A DNA stretch of 63,257 bases from a virus. Its lineage: Duplodnaviria > Heunggongvirae > Uroviricota > Caudoviricetes. The notes beneath the pieces are model-generated. The model made no database searches and had not been told where the DNA came from. It saw only the letters and a list, made by a program, of their open reading frames with translations. The stretch lies in IMG/VR virus record IMGVR_UViG_3300032167_002310; one strand, written 5' to 3'. This document shows positions 2,453 to 62,731 of the stretch, piece after piece (position 1 is the first letter of the stretch; each line of letters begins with the position of its first letter). A program made the translations under genes and the position numbers.

Positions 2453-5203
2453 ATGGCAGTAAAGTTGTATCCCCCTGTAATAGAGGGAGCACTTCCAGCC
2501 TTCTATGGGACTGAGACTCTCTCAGTCCCATTTTCTATGAATCGAGCTGTTGGAGTTAGTGAAGTAGCTGGATTTGCTTTAAAAATCAAAACAGTTGGTG
2601 GTGTTTATGTCACAACTCTCAAGACAGTTGATACCTCTGATTTTGACCTACTTGATAGTACGATAGTTTCATTTGATATTTCAGGATTGGATAAACCTTT
2701 TACTGTTGGTCAATATTACAAAGTTCAGCTCGCTTATATTGACAAGGATAATCAAGTCGGTTTTTACTCAACTGTTGGTGTAATTAAATATACAACTAAA
2801 CCAACTGTAACTCTTCAGAATTTTAAATTCGGACAAATTAACCAGCATAATTATTCTTATGTTGGACTATATAGCCAAGAGGGTGCTACTACTCTTGAAG
2901 ATGGTCGTGTTGTAAAGCGTGATTCTACTGAGAAAATGTATTCCTGTAGATTTACAATTCAAGATGACCAAGGTAATTATGTGTATGATAGTGGAGAGAT
3001 TATCCATAAGACTATTGAAGATGATGTATCTTATGAATCACATGAGTCTTGTTTGATTTCTCAAGATTTGGATATTAACCGCTCTTATTATGCACGCTTC
3101 TGGGTTAAGACTATTAATGGTCTCGAAGAAGCTTCTCAGAAATATCGTGTAATGCAGAGACGTTCTATTAGTCCTGAGATTACAGTAGAACTTAAGGCTG
3201 AATTAGATTATGACAATGGTTTCATCAATATTAGAATTATTGATGTTCCACCAAAAGACCCAGTTATTTCTGGTACTTTCTTAATCTCTCGTGCGGCAAG
3301 TAATACAGGATATGTATGGGAAGAATTTAGACGTTTTGACTTACAATCTATGATTCCAGATAAATGGAGTGCGGTAGATTGTACAATTGAACAAGGCGTT
3401 ACTTATAAGTATTCTTTGCAGCAATATAATGCTAATAAGATTTACTCTGATAGAATCATTTCTAATGCAGTATATGCGGATTTCGAAGATGCGTTCCTTT
3501 ATGATGGGAGCAAGCAACTCAAGATTCGATTTAATCCTAAAGTGTCAAGCTTTAAGAATACAGTATTAGAAACCAAGGTGGATACTATTGGTAGTCAACA
3601 TCCATTCATTCTTAGAAATGGAAACGTAAACTATCGAGAATTTCCAATCTCTGGGCTAATTTCTTATCAAATGGACGACAGTCATATGTTCATGTCCAAG
3701 GAAGACCTTGCCCTTACTGAAAAATCGTTTGATTTAACAAGTGATAATATTAAAACAGAAAGAATATTTAAGTTGAAAGCATTAGAATGGCTTACGAACG
3801 GAAAAGCCAAACTCTTCCGCTCTCCGACCGAAGGTAATTATATTGTTCGCTTGATGAATAGCTCATTGACTCCGAACGATACGGTCGGCCGCATGCTTCA
3901 TACATTTAACTGTACTGCATACGAAATTGCGAAATGCACAACTGAAAACTTAGAATATTATGGACTTATTGATGCGACAGAGAACCTTACAGCACAGACT
4001 CGTTGGGTTACTGTTGACATTCAGAAGTTTGCACAAACTGCAATTGGTGAACCAAACGATTTAATCACATTAAATGATAAACAATTTTATTCTGTATCAT
4101 TAACTGATATGATGCCAGGCACTTTGATTTACATTGATGGCATTAGTATTCAGATTGGCGCTACTGGGGCTTACGCAGTTTCAAGTGAAACTCCTTTTAC
4201 AAAAATCCAAATTGCCAAGAAAGATATGATGCAAGGATTGGTAACTTATAGTTACAAATCTAAGGTGGCTAATGTGTTCGGTATGATTGAAGAAGTCCAT
4301 ATTGAGGATGTGCCTATCCAGCAATATGTTGGAGGATTCCCATATAATGGACCAGGTCTTCGAAACTATTTAGCTTCTTTAGAAGATATAAAAACAGAAG
4401 TCTTACATATTGCATTTATGCGTTTTACTAAGCGTGAAGCAAGAGATATTTTTATGGATATTAAATATCAAGACTATATCGAAAGAGGAGATTCTGTATT
4501 TATGGTTACATCTGACAATCCTTTGAAGTTTTATACTGATATGGATTGTTTGAATCCTATTGAACCAGCTGATTTAGACCCATTATGTTTATACCAGATT
4601 CGTTTCAGAAGAACTGACTATAGATACTATTATGAAAATAAAAAAGACCCAAGTGTCTATTTAGAACCTTTTATTAAAGAAGACCATTTGGTTGATAGAA
4701 CTTCTCCTTACTTTGCCCCTTATGCTCCGGTTTATTTCGACCCTATTACAATTAGCATCCATCCTATCAATGAAAATATTTATGATATTGTAATTGATGG
4801 TGAAAGGGTAAATATTGCAGAAACAGGACATTTTGAAATTTCTGATATGCAAGAAAGAAAACCAGATGTAAGACTTTATCCAGGTATTATTACTGAGATT
4901 AGCTATTCTAAACAAATTATTACTTATTCATTTGAAACAAGTGATGAAGCTGTAAAAACAGCAAAAAATAGTTATCTTTCAGCATATAATCAATACCAGA
5001 GTGATTGGTGTGGAGGTAAAGCGGCTGTAGTTAAATTGCCAGTTCCACCTAACTCACCAACTTCTTTAAATGATACTCAATTAAGTATGTATAGAAACCA
5101 AGTTAAAATGATGGAGAATTTAACTAAGAATACCTATTCATCTTTCATTTCTCAGTTAAATAGAGCCATTAGAGAATACAAGGAGGCGAATGGTATAGTA
5201 TGA
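2453..5203 (+). CDS. Large virion structural protein (tail/baseplate, 916 aa)
   Basis: Long uninterrupted ORF, tightly packed with neighbours, start overlaps RBS ggagtaaagg; no catalytic motif recognised. Confidence 0.5.
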   Translation: MAVKLYPPVIEGALPAFYGTETLSVPFSMNRAVGVSEVAGFALKIKTVGGVYVTTLKTVDTSDFDLLDSTIVSFDISGLDKPFTVGQYYKVQLAYIDKDNQVGFYSTVGVIKYTTKPTVTLQNFKFGQINQHNYSYVGLYSQEGATTLEDGRVVKRDSTEKMYSCRFTIQDDQGNYVYDSGEIIHKTIEDDVSYESHESCLISQDLDINRSYYARFWVKTINGLEEASQKYRVMQRRSISPEITVELKAELDYDNGFINIRIIDVPPKDPVISGTFLISRAASNTGYVWEEFRRFDLQSMIPDKWSAVDCTIEQGVTYKYSLQQYNANKIYSDRIISNAVYADFEDAFLYDGSKQLKIRFNPKVSSFKNTVLETKVDTIGSQHPFILRNGNVNYREFPISGLISYQMDDSHMFMSKEDLALTEKSFDLTSDNIKTERIFKLKALEWLTNGKAKLFRSPTEGNYIVRLMNSSLTPNDTVGRMLHTFNCTAYEIAKCTTENLEYYGLIDATENLTAQTRWVTVDIQKFAQTAIGEPNDLITLNDKQFYSVSLTDMMPGTLIYIDGISIQIGATGAYAVSSETPFTKIQIAKKDMMQGLVTYSYKSKVANVFGMIEEVHIEDVPIQQYVGGFPYNGPGLRNYLASLEDIKTEVLHIAFMRFTKREARDIFMDIKYQDYIERGDSVFMVTSDNPLKFYTDMDCLNPIEPADLDPLCLYQIRFRRTDYRYYYENKKDPSVYLEPFIKEDHLVDRTSPYFAPYAPVYFDPITISIHPINENIYDIVIDGERVNIAETGHFEISDMQERKPDVRLYPGIITEISYSKQIITYSFETSDEAVKTAKNSYLSAYNQYQSDWCGGKAAVVKLPVPPNSPTSLNDTQLSMYRNQVKMMENLTKNTYSSFISQLNRAIREYKEANGIV

Positions 5204-7956
5204 CAAACCCTTTGTTAGACAAAGAGTTCTTGAGATTATTAGACCAGCAGAAAGAAAGAGAAATTTTCGCCCGTGTAGTATCATTAAATTTTAAAGAGGA
5301 ACCCTTGGAAGAAATTACTGGTAGAGTAACCCAGGGTTCCGTGAATATTGATGGCAATTCTGCGGTCAGACGCACCTGTTCGGTTAGTATGGTCGCAGAA
5401 GAGCTCAACATTCATGATTATTATTGGGGATTAAATACAAAATTTGAACTTTATGTTGGTTTAACTAATGATATTGAACCCAAATATCCAGATATTATCT
5501 GGTTCCCGCAGGGAACATTTTTAATCTCCTCATTTAACACTTCTCAAAGTGTAAGTAACTATTCTATTTCTTTACAAGGTAAAGATAAGATGTGTATGCT
5601 AAATGGAGAGATTGGTGGTACTGTGACTGCGCTTTCCGTTGATTTCGGTCAGGTTGATCTGGTTCAAGAGGACGGAAGTATTATTACAGAAAAATATTTA
5701 TTGAAAGATATTATTCGTGATGCAGTTCACACCTATGCGCAAGAGCCATATCAAAATATTATTATTAATGACTTGGATGAGGCTGGCGCAGAATTAATGG
5801 AGTATAGAGGAGAAACTCCAATGTATTTCCTTGTTAATAATGACACTCATGAAGTAACCAATATGACTATGAATGGTGAACAAGGTGGTTATTATTATCA
5901 GAAATACGATAAAGAACAGGGAAAATATTTAGATTGGTCTACAGATACGATTGCTATTGGTAGTCTTGATGATTCTGAATATGATAATCGTACAGATTAC
6001 CTTGACGTAGATACCTATCCAACTTATGTACGCACGACTGATGAGAATGGTAACATCACTGGAACTTATACTGTTATTCGTGCAACAGATGGTATGACTA
6101 TTGGCTATCGCTTAATCGGTCTTACTTATGCAGGAGATTTAGTAATTCAAGTTGGCGGTACTGTTACTCAAATGCTTGATAAGATTAAATCTATGCTTGG
6201 TGATTTTGAATATTTTTATGACCTTCAAGGTCATTTTGTATTCCAAAGAAAAAGAACTTTTATTAATCAATCTTGGAATAATATTGCTCGCAATACAGAC
6301 AGCGAAACTTATGTAGACCCAGTTGCTCTTACTTCCGGTGTAAGTTATAACTTTGAAAATAGTAATATTATTACTTCTTTTGCAAATGCTCCTAACTTAG
6401 CAAATCTTAAAAATGATTTCTCAATTTGGGGCGCACGTAAGTCTACTACTGGGCAAGAGATTCCAATTCATTTACGTTATGCGATTGATAAGAAACCGAC
6501 TTATTATAAAAGTTTTAGTGGTCAAGTATACACAACAAATATGGATTTGGTAAAATATGATAAAGCTCCCGTACCGCAGGGCCTTTCTGATGATTGGTGG
6601 GAAGTAAGAGACTGGGCTGAATATTACCATCTTTTGACAGGCGATTATCCAAACGATGTTATGAGTAATTATATTACTGAATACACTTATTTGGATTTGC
6701 AAGCTTTATTCCCTGGTGGTGTTACTTGGGATAAAAATAGACCAGTTTTCTTATTCGACGTAACTGCGCTTGGTGCTCTTTCTTATACAGGTCATAATCC
6801 TATGAGAGAACCTGTTACTTACGCACCATGCGGCCACAGTTATAGTTATTTTATCAACAACGCAAATCAAAAAGGTATTTTATCTTATTTTTATAAGCCA
6901 AGGATTCCAGATGGCGTTGTCTATACTAAAGAAGTGGATTGGCGAGAGATTATTTATCAGATGGCTCTTGATTATATGGACCATCAAGGAGAAGATGATT
7001 TCTTGTTAAAACTTGCTGAAAATAATCGTGATGGTGAAACTGGTGAAAGCTATTACCCAGATGGATATACTGGCTATGAGCAGTATTATGCTGATATTTT
7101 AGGATTTTGGAGAAATCTTTATAATCCCACTTATCTTAGCTCTTATGAAACTGCTTATTTAACTAAAAGTAAATATAATGCCAATCCAACAAATTATTAT
7201 GTTCCAGTACAGTGTACTGGAACTGATAAATTTGATAAAAATAAAGCTTATGTAAAGAAGATTGTTTTTGGCTCATATGAACCTGTTGAGTTAAGTGAAG
7301 AAAATTATAATAATATTAAAGATATTTCAATTTTCTATTATTTAAAACAATGCACTAAAAATATGGCATATGACCCTAAGCAATTATATTTTGTTAAGGT
7401 TACTGGAGAATATGACACAGAAAGCGGATGGCATACAACAGTATTGGAGTCTCCAGAATTACTCAATTTCTGGTTCGATTTTTTAGATGCTCGTGATGGT
7501 CAACTTGCTAACTATGCAGTCTATAATGTTGGTAATAGGCCAAAATCCGAAAATGACTCTAATGTAAAAGCCATTTATTTTAGAGATACTCCAAACGTGA
7601 TTTTTGTAGATTCTACAGTCTCAGATGATGAAATGGGAGAAATGCATGAACAAAAACCTGGTTATACTTTTATTAAACTTCCTACTGTAATGGAGAATTT
7701 GTTTACTATTAGTTCTCAAGGTAAATCTGCATTTGACCAATTAAACTCTCATTTATATAATTATGCTTACTGTACAGAATCCATTACAGTCAATGCATTA
7801 CCAGTTTATTATCTTGAACCAAATACTCGTATATTTGTAAAAGATGAAAACAGTGGTATTGAGGGAGAGTATATTATAAATCGAATTTCGATTCCTTTGC
7901 AATATCAAGGAACGATGTCAATTTCTGCTACCAAAGTAGTGGAGAGATTATATTAA
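5200..7956 (+). CDS. Large virion structural protein (tail/baseplate, 918 aa)
   Basis: ATGA start/stop overlap with upstream gene (translational coupling); long ORF in structural block. Confidence 0.5.
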   Translation: MTNPLLDKEFLRLLDQQKEREIFARVVSLNFKEEPLEEITGRVTQGSVNIDGNSAVRRTCSVSMVAEELNIHDYYWGLNTKFELYVGLTNDIEPKYPDIIWFPQGTFLISSFNTSQSVSNYSISLQGKDKMCMLNGEIGGTVTALSVDFGQVDLVQEDGSIITEKYLLKDIIRDAVHTYAQEPYQNIIINDLDEAGAELMEYRGETPMYFLVNNDTHEVTNMTMNGEQGGYYYQKYDKEQGKYLDWSTDTIAIGSLDDSEYDNRTDYLDVDTYPTYVRTTDENGNITGTYTVIRATDGMTIGYRLIGLTYAGDLVIQVGGTVTQMLDKIKSMLGDFEYFYDLQGHFVFQRKRTFINQSWNNIARNTDSETYVDPVALTSGVSYNFENSNIITSFANAPNLANLKNDFSIWGARKSTTGQEIPIHLRYAIDKKPTYYKSFSGQVYTTNMDLVKYDKAPVPQGLSDDWWEVRDWAEYYHLLTGDYPNDVMSNYITEYTYLDLQALFPGGVTWDKNRPVFLFDVTALGALSYTGHNPMREPVTYAPCGHSYSYFINNANQKGILSYFYKPRIPDGVVYTKEVDWREIIYQMALDYMDHQGEDDFLLKLAENNRDGETGESYYPDGYTGYEQYYADILGFWRNLYNPTYLSSYETAYLTKSKYNANPTNYYVPVQCTGTDKFDKNKAYVKKIVFGSYEPVELSEENYNNIKDISIFYYLKQCTKNMAYDPKQLYFVKVTGEYDTESGWHTTVLESPELLNFWFDFLDARDGQLANYAVYNVGNRPKSENDSNVKAIYFRDTPNVIFVDSTVSDDEMGEMHEQKPGYTFIKLPTVMENLFTISSQGKSAFDQLNSHLYNYAYCTESITVNALPVYYLEPNTRIFVKDENSGIEGEYIINRISIPLQYQGTMSISATKVVERLY

Positions 7957-27485: not shown

Positions 27486-27530
27486 GGGGAAGAGCATCCT
27501 TCGGGGTGTTCTTCCCCTTTTTCTTATTTG
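27486..27530 (+). terminator. Rho-independent terminator
   Basis: Imperfect GC-rich stem ggggaagagcatcc / gggtgttcttcccc with ttcg loop, followed by tttttcttattt. Confidence 0.7.
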
Positions 27531-30600: not shown

Positions 30601-33600
30601 CCAACAGCCTATGGTATTGCAATGCGTAGTAACCTTGGTGCTCATGGTTATGCAACAGACACTTGGAATACGTATTTCATGATGTCTAATGGCGCAACTC
30701 GTGGTTGGGTATTTAGAAATGGAACTACTAATGTAGCGTCTATTAATGGTCAAGGTTATATTTCAGCTAATAAGCTAAACTTGAATAGAACTGGTGGTAT
30801 AGCCAACGGTCGTATTAGCTGGTACAGCACAACATATAAGACATGGCATGATTATATGTCTAATGTTGTTGCAGGAGGATGCCCAAGTGGTGGAACTCCT
30901 TCAATTCTCGGTGCTGTTAAGACCTGGGCACTTAGAAGCTATATTGAAAATGCAAGTGGACATGGTTGGTTATGGGAGTCTGCCGCAGAATCAAATACTG
31001 GAACTCCTACTCCAAGAATGGCCTTGTCCTCTAATACTGGTAAACTTTACCTCTCCAATGATTTAAATATTATCACTGGAGATACAGATAAATTCGTTCA
31101 TTATTTGTATGACGGAACTGAAGCTAATACAATTGGTGCCTCTTGGAGAGCTGGTGTAAAACAGTCTACCACAGATAATGAATATGTCATTGAATCTGGT
31201 AGCGCAGCAACCACTGCAACTGCTTGGCTCAATGGATTAAAAATTACTCAAGCAACACTTAATGCTACTTTTGGTACTTCTGCTTTAGGTGGTTTAGGTA
31301 TTGCAAATACTTCTGCTACTACTGGTCACGGCATTTCCTTGTATAGCGGAGGTATGAGTGGCAAACCAACTTATGGTTTAATGTTTGCGGGTACGGCAAC
31401 ATTTAAAACTCATGGTTATGTAACTGGCGACTGGGCTACTTACTTCACTATGAATGGTACAGCAAATCGTGGTTGGATTTTCTTGAAAGATGCAAATCCA
31501 GTAGCATCTATTAGTAATGATGGTAAAGCTAACTTTGGAGAGACTTACATTAGAGGTCCTTTAAAGATTGGTGATAATGCGAATGGTGATACGAACTATA
31601 TTGCATTTTATGGAACAACTGGAGATAATCCTGGTTCATTTAATCACGCATATATTGGTGAAAATCTTTGGGGAACCAATGAGCGTAGTGAATTGTTAAT
31701 CTTTAAAGGTAATGATATTGGAACAACTGCTACAGGCCCAGATAGAATTCGTCACGTTGCTGCAGCTCATTTATTCCAAGTTTATACTACCGCTTTAAGT
31801 GGAACTTGGACTACAATTTGTGATTCTACTGTTCCAGTTAGTGTATTTGAAATTAACCAGTCTGGAATCGTAGTAACAGGTGCGACTACAATTAGTGGCA
31901 ATGCCACTGTTGGCGGAACTCTTGATGTAACTGGTAATACAAGTCTTGGTGCTGAATTAAGTGTAACAAGTTATGCTAAATTTAAGCAAGGTAGTGCGGC
32001 TACTGGTCTTAATACTGGTGCAGTGCAAGTGACTGGTGGTATTAGCGTAAGTGCAGCTTCTTATATTGGTGGAGCATTAACTGTAAATAGTACAATTAAT
32101 GCAACTGGTAATGTGACTGCTCCAAGATTTATTGGACTGGCAGATAGAGCAACTTTGATAGACGCAACTCTGTCTGGTACATCTTCTGCAACACATTTAA
32201 CTGCTCATCCAGCAACCGCAGGTCGTGTAGCATTTTATTATAATGTCAATCCATGTACAGGATTATTCACAACAGATAATAATGCTAATTTCTTGATTAC
32301 TCTTAATAAGCACTCTGGTAATTATGATTCTCAATTAGGATTTAGTTCAGATGGAAATATCTATTATAGAAGTTTTAATGGCTCTGCATTAGATACAACA
32401 ACTGGTTGGCAAATGTTACTTACGACTGCAAATGTAACTGGTGAATTAGATGGCCGTTATGTAAATGTCACTGGAGATACTATGTCTGGTGCATTAAAAG
32501 TTCCTAATATTACAATTAGTAGTACTTCAAGTATTGCACATATTCAATTCTCTTGTACTACTTCATACAATTACTTACATGTTCCTTCTACTGAGGGTAA
32601 AATTGCATTTTGTGCAGCTGATAGTTTATCTTTGAAGGGTTCAGCTTTGGTTGTTACTAACACAGGCATTGTTCCTGGAAATAACAATACATTCACTTTA
32701 GGTAGCTCTTCTGCTTATTGGAGTAGGGCTCACTTAGGAGCATTAACAATGTATGGTAATATTACATATGCTAATGGTTCTTATACTGATTATGAAATGA
32801 TTAAGTTTGTTACCGGCACTGGAGATGGTTGTGGTATTGTAATTGGCGGTGGCGGTCTTGCGGTATTTGGCTCAGGCGAGTCTGCAAGTAATTTTGTATC
32901 TGCTGCAGGCTTAGCTGGCAATACTGAAACAACTTATATCACTTCTGATAATGGAATTTATTTTGTAACTAATTGTCAGACTATTGCAGATAGAAATGAA
33001 AGTATTTTTGTTTCTGGTGGACAAATTAGCAGACCTGGAACTTCAACTTCTTGGTATTTAGGAAGAAGTAACGCTCTCTTAAAAATTACTTCTTACTTAG
33101 GATATAATGCTATTTATTCTATGAAAACAACCAATGGAGACTGGTCTTGTGGTGTTTATAGTAGCAATACTTTGTATTGGTCTTATGTTACTGATACTAA
33201 TTTTAATGCGGGTACAAATGAAACTACTGCTCAAATGAGGCTAACTGCTGATGGTTATTTATATGCTACAAGAGTATATAATGCTGTATGGAATGACTAC
33301 GCAGAGTGTAGAAGTGCAGATACAGAAGAGCCAGGTCGAGTTGTTATTGAAGGTAAATTTGGTATTATGACTAAATCTACTAAAAGACTTCAAGCTGGAG
33401 GTAGTATTATATCTGATACGTATGGCACTTCAATGGGAGAAACAGATAATTGCAAAACTCCAGTTGCAGTAGCGGGTCGTGTACTTGCATATCCATATGA
33501 AGATAGATATTCTTATCCTTTGGGTGCGGCGGTATGTACTGGACCAAATGGTACAGTAAGCTTAATGACTCGTGAAGAAATTCGAGAATATCCAGAACGT

Positions 33601-33693
33601 ATTCTTGGAACAGTTTCTGAAATTCCTGAATATGAAGTTTGGGGAAGCGGAAACGTTAAAGTTAATGGAAGAATTTGGATTAAAGTAAAATAA
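27622..33693 (+). CDS. Long tail fiber protein (2023 aa) with the shared N-terminal motif, repeated beta-helix-like modules and a possible C-terminal intramolecular chaperone domain
   Basis: RBS aaggaggtttaaaaattttATG; N-terminus GHIYFTTRTNDEGEVIGSIFYDVDDKRVSMGGG; repeated AGxxxxGAQTFAGxKTF modules and GHLTGSLTGNVTGN motifs; distinct C-terminal ~150 aa. Confidence 0.6.
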   Translation: MATNVKFSTGLEEDLLKLNSDKTYVNKIDNGHIYFTTRTNDEGEVIGSIFYDVDDKRVSMGGGIAEQAKADDMKQNIADTYVTRISSEGTKYASTDGVTITTYNGRNVALDTIMLPVASANRAGTVIAGAQTFAGNKTFNNNILFPNVSTGISSGIRWTVGDSDGARIITGATASDAGYLEIAVKSDGNEPIYVRQYSGDFATLVRTLTLLDASGNTIIPGSLLPTAKDTKDLGSETYRWNNAYIKNVQADTLSGHLTGSLTGNVTGNVTGHASLDLPLAGGTMTGDITFKAIASWPAASGETYPIKSKGLKWSGSSDTAAIYYQVDGADSGHLYISMGDDDAASVKFAKSGIAHTIFDSAGKLYPVTNDTGYIGTSSNKFKAIYATNFYGIIEKAYQDESGNNIKATYAATLKNHAHDGNGWSFRLLNKNGAALADALTIPGATAEKAGLITTGAQTFAGKKTFNGQVVIANTTDAAKATANSGALIVGNPSGEHLAIDGNEIMAKASGTTVRALLFQLDGGETKFGGSVLPYTTDTHSLGTEALAWKEAHIGEIYGHLTGSLTGNVTGNATSASKLLTARKIILGNDLQGSVSFDGTKDVTISAASYSASIGGGNKANYPWHRIATTGANAVTSIYNDKDIVIVIRHSYNNGGYGIAKVSMRTNNASGGATANCTITWLVRYNIAEDALQAGFRNTAADSYADLFYKCNTYPRATVYQLQGNRAWTLISSTEASDTTTTDKKTSSEAYATIAAAATELGRTYTHTIVAEDGGIIGKAYMDESGNNIKASYLASIQQVTSDKDTFTFRGYNKNNAAMNNLIIIPAATASGTDQTKWKAGLVTSQAQTWAGDKTFTGNIIIAHTASTDMTASSTNPKITFSEGGTHQPVHLIYTDYDGYRSPAGLKVIGGTSATPAWFEVEGALFVGGASTLNGNVSIKGNIMPQVDNTYVIGDLNAKWKDIYSTTAHVYNTLYVNTSTTGTVGGIALHGTVDPTAYGIAMRSNLGAHGYATDTWNTYFMMSNGATRGWVFRNGTTNVASINGQGYISANKLNLNRTGGIANGRISWYSTTYKTWHDYMSNVVAGGCPSGGTPSILGAVKTWALRSYIENASGHGWLWESAAESNTGTPTPRMALSSNTGKLYLSNDLNIITGDTDKFVHYLYDGTEANTIGASWRAGVKQSTTDNEYVIESGSAATTATAWLNGLKITQATLNATFGTSALGGLGIANTSATTGHGISLYSGGMSGKPTYGLMFAGTATFKTHGYVTGDWATYFTMNGTANRGWIFLKDANPVASISNDGKANFGETYIRGPLKIGDNANGDTNYIAFYGTTGDNPGSFNHAYIGENLWGTNERSELLIFKGNDIGTTATGPDRIRHVAAAHLFQVYTTALSGTWTTICDSTVPVSVFEINQSGIVVTGATTISGNATVGGTLDVTGNTSLGAELSVTSYAKFKQGSAATGLNTGAVQVTGGISVSAASYIGGALTVNSTINATGNVTAPRFIGLADRATLIDATLSGTSSATHLTAHPATAGRVAFYYNVNPCTGLFTTDNNANFLITLNKHSGNYDSQLGFSSDGNIYYRSFNGSALDTTTGWQMLLTTANVTGELDGRYVNVTGDTMSGALKVPNITISSTSSIAHIQFSCTTSYNYLHVPSTEGKIAFCAADSLSLKGSALVVTNTGIVPGNNNTFTLGSSSAYWSRAHLGALTMYGNITYANGSYTDYEMIKFVTGTGDGCGIVIGGGGLAVFGSGESASNFVSAAGLAGNTETTYITSDNGIYFVTNCQTIADRNESIFVSGGQISRPGTSTSWYLGRSNALLKITSYLGYNAIYSMKTTNGDWSCGVYSSNTLYWSYVTDTNFNAGTNETTAQMRLTADGYLYATRVYNAVWNDYAECRSADTEEPGRVVIEGKFGIMTKSTKRLQAGGSIISDTYGTSMGETDNCKTPVAVAGRVLAYPYEDRYSYPLGAAVCTGPNGTVSLMTREEIREYPERILGTVSEIPEYEVWGSGNVKVNGRIWIKVK

Positions 33694-33694
33694 G

Positions 33695-33722
33695 TTAGAG
33701 AGCTTTCGGGCTCTCTAATTTG
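33695..33722 (+). terminator. Terminator hairpin after the 2023-aa fiber gene
   Basis: ttagagagc / gctctctaa 9-bp stem with tttcgg loop, immediately before the -35 of the next promoter. Confidence 0.6.
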
Positions 33723-33748
33723 ACAATCCAATTTTTTTATGATATAAT
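33720..33748 (+). promoter_or_regulatory. Consensus sigma-70/sigma-A promoter (TTGACA-N17-TATAAT)
   Basis: TTGACA at 33720-33725, 17-nt spacer, TATAAT at 33743-33748, then RBS ggaggg at 33761-33766 and ATG at 33774. Confidence 0.75.
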
Positions 33749-33773
33749 ATAATTAAAATAGGAGGGTTATAAT

Positions 33774-34118
33774 ATGGTAAAATACTATTTAGTAATCAAT
33801 GACAATGCTGAAAAATCTTATCTTATTGGTCGTTTCAATGAAATGATTTTACCAGATATGAAGCGTCAGTTATCTGTCACACTTTATCATGAAGACTCTT
33901 TAAATGGAGATTCTATTTTAGTTGATTTAGCTGTTTACCAAGCTGAAAACAGTCTTACTAAAATTGCTATTAAAGATGCAAACGATAAGACGATTTATGA
34001 ATCAACTAATTACTCAAGATTAAATTCTTGCACTGCAAGCTTGCATAATATTACTGACCCAGAAGATGATTTTACTGGTATGGAGTATACAATCGGCGCA
34101 GAGGCAAGTATTGATTAA
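33774..34118 (+). CDS. Hypothetical protein (114 aa), first gene of a promoter-driven small cassette
   Basis: Directly downstream of the perfect promoter and RBS; no recognisable motif. Confidence 0.45.
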   Translation: MVKYYLVINDNAEKSYLIGRFNEMILPDMKRQLSVTLYHEDSLNGDSILVDLAVYQAENSLTKIAIKDANDKTIYESTNYSRLNSCTASLHNITDPEDDFTGMEYTIGAEASID

Positions 34119-34130
34119 GGAGGATAAATC

Positions 34131-34535
34131 ATGGATTGGTTAGCATTATTATCTGATATTTTTGAAGTTTGTGTGCTTCCTCTTCTTGGCGTTTTAACAA
34201 TGTATATTGTTAAGTTTATCCAGGTTAAGAGCGCAGAAATCACTGGTAAGGTTGATAATGACCTCGCAGATAAGTACATCAATATGCTTGCTGTCACCAT
34301 TGAAAACTGTGTAATTGCTACAAACCAAACCTATGTTGAAGCACTTAAGCAGGCTGGCAAATTTGATGCTGAAGCTCAGAAGACCGCATTTAATATGACA
34401 AAGAATGCCGTTATGGCAATTCTTAGCGACGAAGCTAAGAAATATCTTGAGAATGCGGTTGGCGACTTAAATGAATATATTACTCAACAGATTGAAGCTG
34501 CTGTTAATATTAACAAGCCTGCAAAAGCTCAATAA
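34131..34535 (+). CDS. Small membrane protein with one N-terminal TM helix (134 aa); holin-like or membrane-targeted
   Basis: Hydrophobic segment VCVLPLLGVLTMYIV followed by a helical soluble domain; RBS aggaggataaatcATG; ends at the bidirectional terminator. Confidence 0.4.
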   Translation: MDWLALLSDIFEVCVLPLLGVLTMYIVKFIQVKSAEITGKVDNDLADKYINMLAVTIENCVIATNQTYVEALKQAGKFDAEAQKTAFNMTKNAVMAILSDEAKKYLENAVGDLNEYITQQIEAAVNINKPAKAQ

Positions 34536-34592
34536 AAACAAAAAAGGGGAGACCTTAGTAATTTCTTACTAAGGTCTCCCCTATTTTTTTTA
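34536..34592. terminator. Bidirectional rho-independent terminator at the convergence of + and - strand modules
   Basis: Perfect 13-bp stem ggggagaccttag / ctaaggtctcccc (34546-34558 / 34569-34581) flanked by an A-run upstream and a T-run downstream. Confidence 0.85.
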
Positions 34593-35096
34593 TTTTTCTG
34601 GTGCATGGTCAACAACATCAAGTTCAATTACTTTTTCGTAATATTCTTGTGCTTGACCATTGCCACCTAAGCCATGATATAATTTATACATTTCTGTAAT
34701 TTGCTCAAAATCGGAGGTAGTAATCCAGCCATCACGAAGATGTGTTTTACAAAGTTGGATAAGTCTAAATTTATAAGAATTGATAATCAATTCCAAATTC
34801 TTATCATTCTTTTGCGTAACTTTTTCCAAATCTTTATACATTTCTGCGTGGGTCTTATCTGCTTCTCTTTGAGCATTATGTAAGCCTTTTTCTAAGTCAT
34901 CTTTCACAACTTTTAATTCTTTGATGATTGGCTCAATTTCATCTAAAATCATTTGTCTGTGAAGACGTGTCAAATCTTCCTGTTTACGTTTCTCTAATTC
35001 TTTCTTTTGTGACCAAAGGGATTTGCAGAATGCAAGTAGGCCCGCAGAAACTAAACCGAAGAAGATTTCAAGACCATATTCGGTTAAAATCTCCAT
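34590..35096 (-). CDS. Membrane-anchored coiled-coil protein (168 aa)
   Basis: N-terminal TM (LEIFFGLVSAGLLAF), then a long charged coiled coil; RBS ggagg upstream on the - strand. Confidence 0.45.
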   Translation of the reverse strand: MEILTEYGLEIFFGLVSAGLLAFCKSLWSQKKELEKRKQEDLTRLHRQMILDEIEPIIKELKVVKDDLEKGLHNAQREADKTHAEMYKDLEKVTQKNDKNLELIINSYKFRLIQLCKTHLRDGWITTSDFEQITEMYKLYHGLGGNGQAQEYYEKVIELDVVDHAPEK

Positions 35097-35106
35097 AATA
35101 AAAAAC

Positions 35107-35154
35107 CTCCATTCAAATTCCTAACCTCTATAGAGATTTAAAAGTTGAATGGAG
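35107..35154 (-). promoter_or_regulatory. 10-bp inverted repeat (ctccattcaa ... ttgaatggag) enclosing the palindrome CTCTATAGAG; overlaps the RBS of the 168-aa gene
   Basis: Arms at 35107-35116 and 35145-35154; internal perfect palindrome at 35126-35135; the left arm contains the cctcc complement of the GGAGG RBS. Confidence 0.4.
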
Positions 35155-35163
35155 ATTATTTGC

Positions 35164-35673
35164 TTAATCCGCCCAATCAAATCCATCACTCACAGTTGTT
35201 CCAACTCCTGGTCGTTTCAAACAATGAGTTCCAATGCAAATTGCATCGCAGACGTCTTGAATGGCCTTTACATTATATGTTTTCAATACATATTCTTGTG
35301 CATTTTTCTTTTGTTCAGGTCTGGTGCGGCCTTTAATACCAAGAGTAGATTTCCAAGTACCAGCCATCACAATTGTATATTTCATCTTTTTCTCTTGGAG
35401 TGTTTCAGCGATTACACCAAAAACTTCGGACAGGACTTTAAAGGTTTGAACATTATTTGCGACATTTCCTTGCATCTGAATATCTTCAAATGCAACTTCA
35501 TCAATATCGTACTCTTGGATAAGTTCAATTACCTTTGCGCGGATTTTAACAAGGCGCTCCGCGATTACATCATCATTGAAAGTGAACTTACCATAATTGA
35601 CAAGCTCACCATCTTTAAAGACCGCATAACCTGAAGTTACGCTCGCTTGGTCAATTGCTAATAGATTGGACAT
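35164..35673 (-). CDS. RuvC-like Holliday junction resolvase
   Basis: N-terminal LAIDQASVTSGYAV (RuvC motif GIDPG..TGWAV-like), acidic DIDEVAFEDIQ segment, size 169 aa typical of phage RuvC. Confidence 0.6.
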   Translation of the reverse strand: MSNLLAIDQASVTSGYAVFKDGELVNYGKFTFNDDVIAERLVKIRAKVIELIQEYDIDEVAFEDIQMQGNVANNVQTFKVLSEVFGVIAETLQEKKMKYTIVMAGTWKSTLGIKGRTRPEQKKNAQEYVLKTYNVKAIQDVCDAICIGTHCLKRPGVGTTVSDGFDWAD

Positions 35674-37282: not shown

Positions 37283-37780
37283 TTACATTATATCATTTTT
37301 TCTCATTTTTGTCAAATCAATAATGCGTTGATTTGAGCTTCCCCTCATTTCAAGAGTAATATTTCTACACTCTTCCATGTAGGGCCCATCAATCAATACA
37401 TCAGCTACTTTAAGTAGCATCATTGTATGTTTGTTATTTTGTGCGACAAGGTCTTCATATGTATAACCGGTCCACACATAGATTTTTGCTTCTGGGACTT
37501 TTTCCTTTACAGTAGAGACGATGAGATATGAGAGGAAGATATTTTCGGGACACAGTGGTTCTCCGCCCATAAGGCAGAAATTTCGCTGAATTCCTTGAGC
37601 AGTCAGACCTTCAACAATCTTGTCAAGAATGTCTGGTGTAAACTCTTTTCCTCCTTGGAAATCCCAGGTCTCTGGGTTGTGGCAACCCTTACATCTGTGC
37701 GGGCAGCCTTGAGAGAAAAATGTTACACTAACTCCCGGAGCAGCCGCCATGTCATTATATAATATTCCACTATATTGCAT
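37283..37780 (-). CDS. nrdG: Anaerobic ribonucleotide reductase activating protein (radical SAM)
   Basis: GCPHRCKGCHNPETW (CxxxCxxC radical-SAM cluster in NrdG context), 165 aa, immediately downstream of nrdD. Confidence 0.85.
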   Translation of the reverse strand: MQYSGILYNDMAAAPGVSVTFFSQGCPHRCKGCHNPETWDFQGGKEFTPDILDKIVEGLTAQGIQRNFCLMGGEPLCPENIFLSYLIVSTVKEKVPEAKIYVWTGYTYEDLVAQNNKHTMMLLKVADVLIDGPYMEECRNITLEMRGSSNQRIIDLTKMRKNDIM

Positions 37781-45161: not shown

Positions 45162-45190
45162 ATTATATCATATTTTTCATTAAATGTCAA
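45162..45190 (-). promoter_or_regulatory. Consensus extended -10 promoter (TTGACA-N17-TGaTATAAT) upstream of dnaE
   Basis: Minus-strand TTGACA is rc of + 45185-45190; 17-nt spacer; TGATATAAT is rc of + 45162-45170. Confidence 0.75.
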
Positions 45191-48470: not shown

Positions 48471-48499
48471 ATTATACCATATTTTATATGGAAAGTCAA
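48471..48499 (-). promoter_or_regulatory. Consensus extended -10 promoter (TTGACT-N17-TGgTATAAT) for the alarmone-hydrolase operon
   Basis: rc of + agtcaa 48494-48499, 17-nt spacer, rc of + attatacca 48471-48479. Confidence 0.75.
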
Positions 48500-60505: not shown

Positions 60506-60534
60506 ATTATATCAAAAAAATTTTCAAAAGTCAA
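60506..60534 (-). promoter_or_regulatory. Consensus extended -10 promoter (TTGACT-N17-TGaTATAAT)
   Basis: rc of + agtcaa 60529-60534, 17-nt spacer, rc of + attatatca 60506-60514. Confidence 0.7.
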
Positions 60535-60737: not shown

Positions 60738-60784
60738 GAATTTTTCATCCTTAATCTTTACATTTATATTGTATCAAATTTTTT

Positions 60785-62731
60785 TCAATTTGTCAAGAAT
60801 TGTTCAATAAATTCCGCTTCAGTGAGGACTGGGACGCCCAGCTTCTGAGCAGCTACATTCTTGGCAGATGATGAAGTGTTGTCGTTGTTAATGAGATAGT
60901 TAGTGTTCTTGCTTACCGAACCGACAACTTTGCCTCCTCGGCTTTCGATGTCAGCCTGGAGCGCACTTCTATTCTTATACTGGGTTAATTTACCCGTAAT
61001 AACAACTGTAACTCCATCCAAGGAGGTTGAAGTTACCTCTTTTTGCTCGACCTCTTGGACTTTAATGTATTTTTCAACAATTGAGTCCGCAAGTTCATAA
61101 TCAAAGTTTACAATCGCATTGTGCATTTCCAATCCAAAACCATCAATGTTATAGAATTTGAAACCACCGCCAACTGCATCTCTGAAATCCTCCCAAGAAC
61201 TAAAACACTTACTCAGTTCTTTAGAAGCAGAAGAGCCGATAAGAGGAATACCCAAGGCACATATGAAAGAATTCAAGGTACAATTTCTTGATGCATCAAT
61301 TGCATCCAGAATTTTCTCGACAGACTTGACGCCAAAACCAGGTTTCTTAATCCAGTCCGCAGTATAATCTTGCAAACAATACAAGTCAGCTACATTCGAT
61401 ACCCAGCCCCAGTTAATGAGCTTCTCGAGGGTCATCTTTGAAAGCCCCTTGATATCCAAACCTTTCTTTCCGCAGAAATGGTCTAATTTATTAATGAGTT
61501 TCCCCTCACACGAGATATTGGTACAAACAAGGAATGTTGAATCATTGTCTGTACGCTCGGTTACAGGACCGCCGCAAATCGGGCAAACAGTTGGTAATTC
61601 AAACGTCTCCCCGTGAGACTCTTTTTCTGCGAAACCAATTTGAGGGATAATCATATTGGCTTTGTAGACTTCGACTTTTTGACCAACGTGAGCATTTTCA
61701 CCGAGGGTTTCTCTCATAACAGTTACATTATGGAGGCTTGCTCGCTCGACAGTAGAACCATCAATGTCTATGGCTTCAAAGACTGCTATTGGTGTCAAGA
61801 CACCAGTTCTTCCCATGGTCCACTCAATTCTGAGTAACTGAGTTCCAAACATTTCATCATAGAACTTATATGCAAGCGCATTTCTGAAATGGTGGGAAGT
61901 TTCACCTTGTGATAAACCATATTTTACGTCGTCAAACTTAAATACGACTCCGTCTATTGGATAAGAGTATTTAACTGCTAACTGCTTGATATCTTCAGTT
62001 ACATTTTCAAGGATTTCTGCTTTAGAAACCTCTTCCCCAGAAAGGACGATTCGAGGAACAGTCGTAAAACCTAATGCAGACAATGTATTCAAGCGAAGAT
62101 TGAGAGTATCAATCTCGTCCATGCCCTTCAACACATCCCATGCAACGAACTTAAGTCTGCGCTCAGCGCATTCTTTTGAGTCAAGCAGACGAATACTTCC
62201 CGCAGCAAAGTTTCGTGGATTTTTATATTCATTCGCAAAAAACTCAAAATCATCGTAGGTACAAATTACTTCTCCATCCACAACAAGTTCATCCATATAC
62301 TTAATTCGCTTAGGAATAGACGGAATGACTAACGCATTGTGGAAAATACCCTCACCAATAAAACCATTACCACGAGTTTCCGCACTCACTAACTTACCAT
62401 CTACATAACGAAGAGAACAAGTCAAGCCATCCATTTTACACATAGCAACTGTATCTTTGCGATGCATGAACGCTACAACTTCAGATAACTCTTTTGTCTT
62501 CGCCAATGATAGCATCTTATGATTATGTTCCACTTTGTCGAGCTGGTTCACAACCTGATAACTAATCACCTGCGTAGGGGAATCCGGTAAAACGACGCCT
62601 TCACTAATTTCCATAGCCATAAGCTCGAAATACAGGTCATCCCACTCTTCATCAGACATAATAGGAGTGCCCTTGTCGTATTGTAGAGTAGCAAGATTTA
62701 ATTTTTGAACTAACTCTTTCATATCATTCAT
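60785..62731 (-). CDS. ligA: NAD-dependent DNA ligase
   Basis: Adenylation motif CKMDGLTCSLRY (KxDG); zinc finger CPICGGPV...CTNISCEGK; C-terminal BRCT-like region; 648 aa. Confidence 0.9.
   Translation of the reverse strand: MNDMKELVQKLNLATLQYDKGTPIMSDEEWDDLYFELMAMEISEGVVLPDSPTQVISYQVVNQLDKVEHNHKMLSLAKTKELSEVVAFMHRKDTVAMCKMDGLTCSLRYVDGKLVSAETRGNGFIGEGIFHNALVIPSIPKRIKYMDELVVDGEVICTYDDFEFFANEYKNPRNFAAGSIRLLDSKECAERRLKFVAWDVLKGMDEIDTLNLRLNTLSALGFTTVPRIVLSGEEVSKAEILENVTEDIKQLAVKYSYPIDGVVFKFDDVKYGLSQGETSHHFRNALAYKFYDEMFGTQLLRIEWTMGRTGVLTPIAVFEAIDIDGSTVERASLHNVTVMRETLGENAHVGQKVEVYKANMIIPQIGFAEKESHGETFELPTVCPICGGPVTERTDNDSTFLVCTNISCEGKLINKLDHFCGKKGLDIKGLSKMTLEKLINWGWVSNVADLYCLQDYTADWIKKPGFGVKSVEKILDAIDASRNCTLNSFICALGIPLIGSSASKELSKCFSSWEDFRDAVGGGFKFYNIDGFGLEMHNAIVNFDYELADSIVEKYIKVQEVEQKEVTSTSLDGVTVVITGKLTQYKNRSALQADIESRGGKVVGSVSKNTNYLINNDNTSSSAKNVAAQKLGVPVLTEAEFIEQFLTN

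Follow-up and report, generated by a model that had tools for sequence, protein, structure and literature searches.

Phages of Gram-positive bacteria encode holins at the end of their late or tail operons (PHROG 13712; more distantly, the Holin_LLH type), and these are small proteins with one N-terminal transmembrane (TM) segment and a long charged helical C-terminus. The Hcp/tail-tube fold is shared by Hcp of type VI secretion systems, the tail tube, the tube initiator, the 'ripcord', lambda gpM and the N-domain of Dit. In a further kind of lysis system, a depolarising holin acts together with an endolysin that carries a signal-arrest-release segment or a signal peptide, as in phage 21, P1 (Lyz) and the secreted endolysins of Oenococcus phage fOg44; there, loss of the membrane potential through a single-TM holin would suffice to trigger lysis. 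Finally, for morons, the definition of Hendrix and colleagues, as quoted in PMC2920897, was used as the yardstick. Here we compare with these systems two small genes at the strand-switch point of a 63,257-nucleotide (nt) stretch of Caudoviricetes DNA (IMG/VR record IMGVR_UViG_3300032167_002310; the whole stretch is called the window), which code for proteins of 114 and 134 amino acids (aa), p114 and p134, and lie between a tail fibre gene and a terminator. The region is probably the ordinary 3' end of the tail arm of a large phage, where a tail accessory protein (p114) and a holin-like protein (p134) are encoded behind a lineage-specific promoter. An earlier note on the same DNA had read it as a moron-like, autonomously expressed cassette of two genes, or a lysis or superinfection-exclusion cassette, wedged between the late structural and the early modules.

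The holin-like protein p134

In about 100 related contigs, mostly long ones (to ~200 kb), a homologue of p134 closes the structural arm as a conserved final gene. Our comparison set consisted of 108 fetched loci (including L005, L011, L087, L103-106, L107 and L108), and in at least 17 of them the p134 homologue lies directly behind the fibre gene, ~12 nt after its stop codon, with a ribosome-binding site but no promoter. For example, in L012-L017, L020-L024, L049 and L051 the holin gene starts about 12 nt past the fibre stop (...AAAGTTAAATAGGAGGAATAATTATGG). Unlike a moron, p134 is thus a conserved gene of the phage family and not an insert, and its usual coupling to the fibre gene contradicts the proposal of a two-gene cassette inserted into the genome.

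The protein has one hydrophobic segment (about residues 4-32), in agreement with the single TM segment claimed in the earlier note, followed by a hydrophilic, acidic and helical C-terminal part of 100 aa, a layout that fits a small membrane-protein holin. It is under purifying selection (ratio of nonsynonymous to synonymous substitution rates, dN/dS, 0.03-0.16) and has 3227 homologues in the protein collection. Residues 17-132 match positions 18-133 of 175 in the profile of PHROG 13712 with E 2.7e-30; the name of this family, 'holin', is annotation-based and not experimental. Similar to Gram-positive late-operon holins, p134 is small, combines a single TM segment at the N-terminus with a long, charged and helical C-terminal domain, is encoded by the last gene of the late arm and is followed by a strong terminator, and its homologues adjoin endolysin genes. 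Indeed, in three out of four annotated phages found by tblastn (Roseburia phage Shimadzu, Faecalibacterium phage FP_Lagaffe and Dulem virus 37, all temperate Firmicutes-type phages), the homologue directly follows the endolysin gene.

Several observations weigh against a holin at this position. The full-length match to Pfam Holin_LLH (PF09682) has E 0.012 and 16.4 bits versus a cut-off of 24.9; among fifteen family members, two reach E<0.01 with this model, and one matches TIGR01673, below its threshold (E 0.006). An hhalign comparison of the p134 family with ORF107 of phage LL-H gave a probability of 0.2, that is, nothing was found, and no experimentally studied holin is detectably related to p134. 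We therefore rejected membership in Holin_LLH, for which all three tests were negative or sub-threshold. Unlike the described late-operon holins, p134 has no adjoining endolysin gene in the window (the candidate lies 14 kb away in the other arm), and it stands behind a consensus sigma-70-type promoter of the class otherwise found in the replication arm, which would be unusual for a holin if this class is early. Moreover, the endolysin genes of the temperate phages have another small TM protein upstream and the p134 homologue downstream, so the p134 family may be a second lysis membrane protein and not the primary holin. Because of this second protein and the missing membership in a curated family, we label p134 as holin-like and lysis-associated, not as a proven holin.

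The same observations could mean that p134 has another function in the membrane: regulating lysis or acting as an antiholin, excluding superinfecting phages by depolarisation, or serving as an anchor that resembles ATP synthase subunit b. Lysis would then be performed by genes outside the window. The curated holin models that p134 does not reach, the additional TM protein in temperate phages and the replication-arm class of its promoter would all be accommodated, as would the weak matches of two family members to F0F1 ATP synthase subunit b. Borges et al. (bioRxiv 10.1101/2021.08.26.457843) described a lysis-cassette TM family with similarly mixed annotations, namely holin, spanin, lysis regulator and ATP synthase B chain. 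We consider this explanation unlikely, since the PHROG match is strong, distant homologues consistently adjoin endolysins and p134 is the sole holin-like protein found in the 63-kb window; even if it were correct, the protein would stay associated with lysis. Among the roles that the earlier note offered for the membrane protein, that of a holin gained support from the PHROG match and the endolysin-adjacent homologues, whereas for superinfection exclusion or an abortive-infection counter-measure there was no positive evidence (PADLOC was not searched).

The fibre-linked protein p114

p114 is a soluble acidic protein (pI 4.4) without a TM segment or signal peptide. It is under purifying selection (dN/dS 0.16-0.54), which, together with the selection on p134 and the ribosome-binding sites of both genes, bears out the claim of two genuine genes of 114 and 134 aa. 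The protein comes close to being an ORFan: among 5.8 billion sequences, a word-based search returned three proteins, and a profile search of 1.84 billion representatives returned fifteen matches, including a 947-aa protein (P0128) that was discarded as a repeat artefact. Peptide patterns revealed no close relatives in IMG/VR; these were later recovered via the holin and the profile search. A hidden Markov model of the family, run against six-frame translations of the 108 fetched loci, identified p114 homologues exclusively in the window and its relatives L085 and L086, in L005, L087, L011, L103-106, L107 and L108; the family was not found outside this phage group.

In all six lineages that possess it, the p114 gene lies 23-80 nt 3' of a fibre gene that ends in the same C-terminal domain (~140 aa, ...NGRIWIKVK), which is 54-79% identical in the relatives and 99% identical in L005. 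In L107 and L108, the p114 homologue is followed directly by a bidirectional terminator, with no holin gene, so the constant partner of p114 is the fibre gene and not the holin. Within L103-106, L107 and L108, the gap between the fibre and p114 genes is 23-49 nt and contains a ribosome-binding site only, suggesting that the two genes are co-transcribed there.

The AlphaFold model of p114 built from an eight-sequence alignment (predicted local distance difference test score, pLDDT, 86.3; predicted template-modelling score, pTM, 0.78; all five models alike) has a predicted Hcp/tail-tube fold. It replaced a poor first model built from three sequences (pLDDT 67), for which a Foldseek search of BFVD returned nothing under E 1e-3. 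The earlier note had named ordinary structural components as the outcome that would speak against its reading and, as far as computation goes, the model places p114 among them. Like other proteins of this fold, p114 is encoded in a tail module; in contrast to them, it shows no family membership at the sequence level, is at the small end of the size range, is encoded after the fibre gene and not among the tube and baseplate genes, and is optional in close relatives. Most likely, judging from its fold and position, p114 is an optional small accessory or assembly component of the tail or fibre.

On the other side, searches of Pfam, PHROG, NCBIfam and PDB sequences with p114 gave no match to a tube/Hcp or any other tail-protein family, and PDB sequences also yielded nothing when queried with the p114 profile or the C-terminus of the fibre protein. 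Furthermore, p114 differs from its allele in L005 at 43% of residues, whereas the last 363 residues of the fibre protein are 99% identical, an odd contrast for a tightly co-evolving fibre partner.

The promoter upstream of p114

The promoter between the fibre and p114 genes consists of a -35 element TTGACA (33720-33725), a 17-nt spacer with a TG extension (33740-33741) and a -10 element TATAAT (33743-33748). All 12 consensus positions match, in accordance with the perfect promoter reported in the earlier note, and this is, as stated there, the sole such site on the + strand of the window; it is also the sole TG-extended site on that strand with at least 11 out of 12 matches. Exact TTGACA-N16-18-TATAAT sites occur three times in the window versus 0.06 expected from dinucleotide shuffles, and none of 100 shuffles reached three. 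The promoter is intergenic and ends 26 nt before the p114 start codon, with transcription predicted to start near 33755. It is one of six sites in the window that share TTGAC(A/T)-N17 and a TG-extended -10 element; the five others are on the - strand, all upstream of genes for replication or nucleotide metabolism. There is no site of this class in the 33-kb structural block, which must therefore use another type of promoter.

Among the relatives, L005 has exactly the same promoter and leader, and those of L011 differ only slightly (TTGACT...TGATATAATATAAC). The leader ATAA(T/C)TAAAATAGGAGGG is kept between the window and L011 although the p114 proteins are just 38% identical there. In L087, where p114 is 73% identical, the -35 element is degenerate and the stretch from it to the ribosome-binding site, including the -10 region, is missing. 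Finally, in L103-106, L107 and L108 a ribosome-binding site alone precedes the p114 homologue. The promoter has thus been kept in two lineages, deleted in a third and is missing from three others, and, going by its conservation, we regard it as genuine, with predicted activity, yet lineage-specific and dispensable.

The hairpin upstream of the promoter starts at the fibre stop codon and extends into the -35 element. On the + strand, TTT-GACA comes after it in place of a U-tract, and the consensus scan made no terminator call on this strand. L087 carries a counterpart at this position whose stem differs in sequence but whose UUCG-type loop is the same, and L011 has none. This hairpin is at best a weak terminator or a stabiliser of the mRNA 3' end. 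The terminator downstream of p134 is of a different kind (-30.8 and -33.8 kcal/mol, z about -9): on both strands it has the GC-rich stem and the U-tract of an intrinsic terminator, and it serves the tail arm on the + strand as well as the replication arm that converges on it from the - strand. Its structure is retained with a different sequence in L011, L087, L107 and L108, and a downstream terminator is also found in relatives that lack p114. Of the two flanking terminators claimed in the earlier note, the downstream one is therefore real, whereas the upstream one is a real hairpin but not a canonical terminator. We also observed that the fibre gene is flanked by two UUCG-loop hairpins, at 27486-27517 and 33691-33722. 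The first of these, upstream of the gene, has a T-run and is a proper terminator; the fibre gene thus probably depends on a promoter of its own, of a type other than sigma-70.

With its own promoter, p114 could be a true moron, that is, an autonomous accessory gene for anti-defence, host takeover or superinfection exclusion, placed between fibre and holin and expressed early from a host-type promoter. Similar to morons, it separates two genes that are neighbours in related phages: about 70 related loci lack it and have contiguous fibre and holin genes. It is preceded by a consensus promoter of the replication-arm class, and its alleles are deeply diverged between near-identical genomes. It is also small, acidic, ORFan-like at the sequence level and lower in GC content (31.6% versus 36.8% for p134 and 38.2% for the window), a modest deviation confined to p114. 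However, it differs from morons in lacking a terminator of its own, as there is none between p114 and p134. Half of the lineages with the gene lack the promoter, and L087 keeps p114 although its promoter is deleted. The family is confined to one phage family and always directly follows the same type of fibre gene, by ribosome-binding site alone in the three lineages with the short gaps. Together with the Hcp/tail-tube-like fold and the absence of a TM segment or signal peptide, these features render a moron improbable, a little more so than the non-holin explanation of p134. In this sense, the moron idea survives in part, and for p114 alone, as an optional insert between genes that are contiguous in relatives, and fails for the cassette.

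Exchange of the p114-p134 stretch

The near-identical sibling L005 shows 98-100% nucleotide identity to the window outside 33770-34540 and 62-78% inside this stretch, which corresponds to L005 1170-1945. The divergent stretch has sharp edges, one where p114 starts and the other where the holin gene ends, and its synonymous divergence (dS) is about 1.3-1.4. p134 is closer to the holin of the L088 lineage (95% identity, in an unrelated context) than to that of L005 (78%). The comparison indicates that the p114-p134 coding stretch has been swapped by recombination between related phages, with the conserved promoter/leader and terminator apparently serving as homology arms of the exchange.

In the L088-L101 loci, the holin gene (at 4001-4402) is 92-95% identical to p134 at the protein level and 83-87% at the DNA level and lies in another neighbourhood, with a GDSL-lipase or CotH gene upstream and genes for YAcAr, a metallophosphatase, a 341-aa sigma-70-family protein and RNase T downstream. 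It is monocistronic and has its own terminator and its own promoter (TTGACT-N17-TGGTATAATATAA), which is of the type found upstream of p114 in the window. This context points to exchange of holins across phage lineages. The L088 lineage possesses a sigma-70-family gene; no phage sigma factor was matched near the lineage of the window with the L089 sigma protein as query.

Replacement of both genes together relative to L005, the 12-nt gap between them (with AAGGAGG) and their common promoter would suit a functional pair in which p114 is a cytoplasmic antiholin-like regulator, expressed and exchanged with the holin. We rejected this explanation as highly improbable, since p114 homologues without a holin and holins without p114 both occur: no holin follows p114 in L107 and L108, the close homologues of p134 in L088-L101 are monocistronic without p114, and the holin stands alone in most relatives. 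Moreover, the fold of p114 points to tail proteins.

A bolder scenario, and in our opinion a rather improbable one, although less so than the antiholin, is that the p114 family represents an undescribed minimal Hcp-fold protein that is not part of the virion and is expressed, from a promoter of an early class, alongside a depolarising protein of the holin-like kind. The two might then, for instance, serve as decoys for superinfecting phages or contractile injection systems or exclude them, or they might form a module that conditions the membrane early. The promoter and terminator would form a dedicated exchange site, which would account for the alleles being swapped between otherwise identical genomes.

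Genomic context and candidate lysis partner

The coordinates of the features are collected in Table 1. Both the sign of the GC skew and the gene orientation flip at the p134/p168 junction, which agrees with the strand switch placed here by the earlier note. The first 33.7 kb of the window (+ strand) encode giant tail and structural proteins, including the fibre protein. The - strand arm encodes RuvC, dUTPase, NrdD/NrdG, guanylate kinase, a 1293-aa DNA polymerase, a Dda-like helicase, RecJ, primase, DnaB, Sak4, DHFR, ThyA, an NAD-dependent ligase and a gyrase fragment. The promoters and ribosome-binding sites resemble those of Gram-positive bacteria. A 76-kb contig from the Joint Genome Institute (L085) is 100% identical to the window across the 2.3 kb compared (33000-35300), and contigs of relatives reach 190-220 kb, which makes the window part of a large phage genome. 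Blastn searches of GenBank phages with the DNA of the region returned no match, and the whole window contains no Rfam RNA family and no tRNAs.

Table 1. Features of the tail-arm end, promoters of the same class and corresponding features in related loci
Feature	Position	Strand	Details
Fibre gene, 2023 aa	27622..33693	+	PHROG 20242 'tail fiber protein', E 4.2e-27
Hairpin with UUCG-type loop, starting at the fibre stop codon	33691..33722	+	-17.1 kcal/mol, z -4.7
Predicted sigma-70/sigma-A-type extended -10 promoter, TTGACA-N17-(TG)n-TATAAT	33720..33748	+	12/12 matches
5' leader with ribosome-binding site AGGAGGG (33760-33766)	33749..33773	+	
p114 gene, 114 aa	33774..34118	+	GGAGG ribosome-binding site
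p134 gene, 134 aa	34131..34535	+	GGAGG ribosome-binding site
Bidirectional intrinsic terminator	34545..34582	both	17-bp stem, 8 GC pairs, T-runs on either side
p168 gene, final gene of the converging arm	34590..35096	-	PHROG 4105/4257, function unknown
Candidate endolysin, 290 aa	48647..49519	-	Pfam PF18013, E 2.5e-17, above threshold
Class promoter	37287..37315	-	Intergenic
Class promoter	45162..45190	-	Intergenic
Class promoter	48471..48499	-	Intergenic
Class promoter	60506..60534	-	Intergenic
Class promoter, -10 element TACAAT (others TATAAT)	60768..60796	-	-35 end inside the last codons of the ligase open reading frame
Hot-spot stretches in relatives	L006 6400-9500; L012 6400-9400; L026 6400-10200; L044 3600-7300; L087 5700-7800; L107 5850-7870		
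TAG-bearing holin gene in relatives (about 6001-6400)	L025-L027, L029, L031, L034, L039, L040, L044-L047, L050		
TAG-bearing RuvC gene in relatives	L006, L028, L030, L041 and others		

In the relatives, the strand switch is a hot spot, with 2-4 kb of variable small genes, including those for Gly/Trp-rich membrane-like proteins, between the holin (or p114) gene and the p168 homologue. No such insert is present in the window, where the two arms abut directly. p168 has a TM segment (residues 9-27), a coiled coil and a conserved C-terminal domain; its gene is syntenic with those of RuvC and dUTPase in many of the relatives whose fetched loci include that arm, and it is oriented towards the holin gene. 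A part for p168 in lysis is conceivable.

The sole lysin-like protein in the window is the lysozyme encoded 14 kb from p134 in the replication arm. It carries a hydrophobic signal-anchor or TM segment (residues 3-31) and a C-terminal Phage_lysozyme2 domain, and its gene is followed by its own terminator. The signal-anchor-like N-terminal segment resembles that of endolysins with a signal-arrest-release segment or signal peptide. By eye only, we noted open reading frames resembling an NlpC/P60-like peptidase and a SpoIID-like protein in L030 (7338-8738, - strand), ~1-2.3 kb past the holin gene; if correctly identified, these would be lysis enzymes linked to the holin family in some members.

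Many relatives contain in-frame TAG codons: one to four in the holin gene, up to eight in RuvC and two to four in the p168 homologue. TAG is thus a sense codon in much of the phage group, including in one replication-arm gene. The window itself uses the standard code.

Model and implications

Reading the region as an ordinary tail-arm end, we propose that the gene order runs from the tail fibre through p114 and p134 to the bidirectional terminator held in common with the converging replication arm. p114 accompanies this type of fibre gene and probably has a structural role. The promoter in the 80-nt spacer between the fibre and p114 genes would let the p114-p134 pair be transcribed apart from the fibre gene, with probable additional read-through from the latter past the weak hairpin. 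Toward the end of infection, p134 would accumulate in the membrane and permeabilise or depolarise it, and the collapse would release or activate the signal-anchored lysozyme, its likely partner. A membrane-tethered or exported lysozyme and a depolarising single-TM holin would make a coherent mechanism; unlike in the described systems, the two genes are unlinked and lie in opposite arms, and their pairing is one that we purely infer.

These results suggest likely roles for two unannotated genes in an abundant, uncultured group of large phages (with contigs to ~200 kb), that is, a holin-like lysis protein with more than 3,000 homologues and a family of small Hcp-fold proteins by which the end of the fibre gene can be recognised. 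They also illustrate how a textbook picture of promoter, genes and terminator can mislead: the holin gene is coupled to the fibre gene in most relatives, monocistronic elsewhere, and linked to a promoter and p114 here. Finally, the group presents a contrast in the control of lysis, since members with the standard code have the holin under a promoter of the replication-arm class, whereas many relatives have a holin gene with in-frame TAG codons. This contrast is relevant to the proposed timing of lysis by recoding (bioRxiv 10.1101/2021.08.26.457843).

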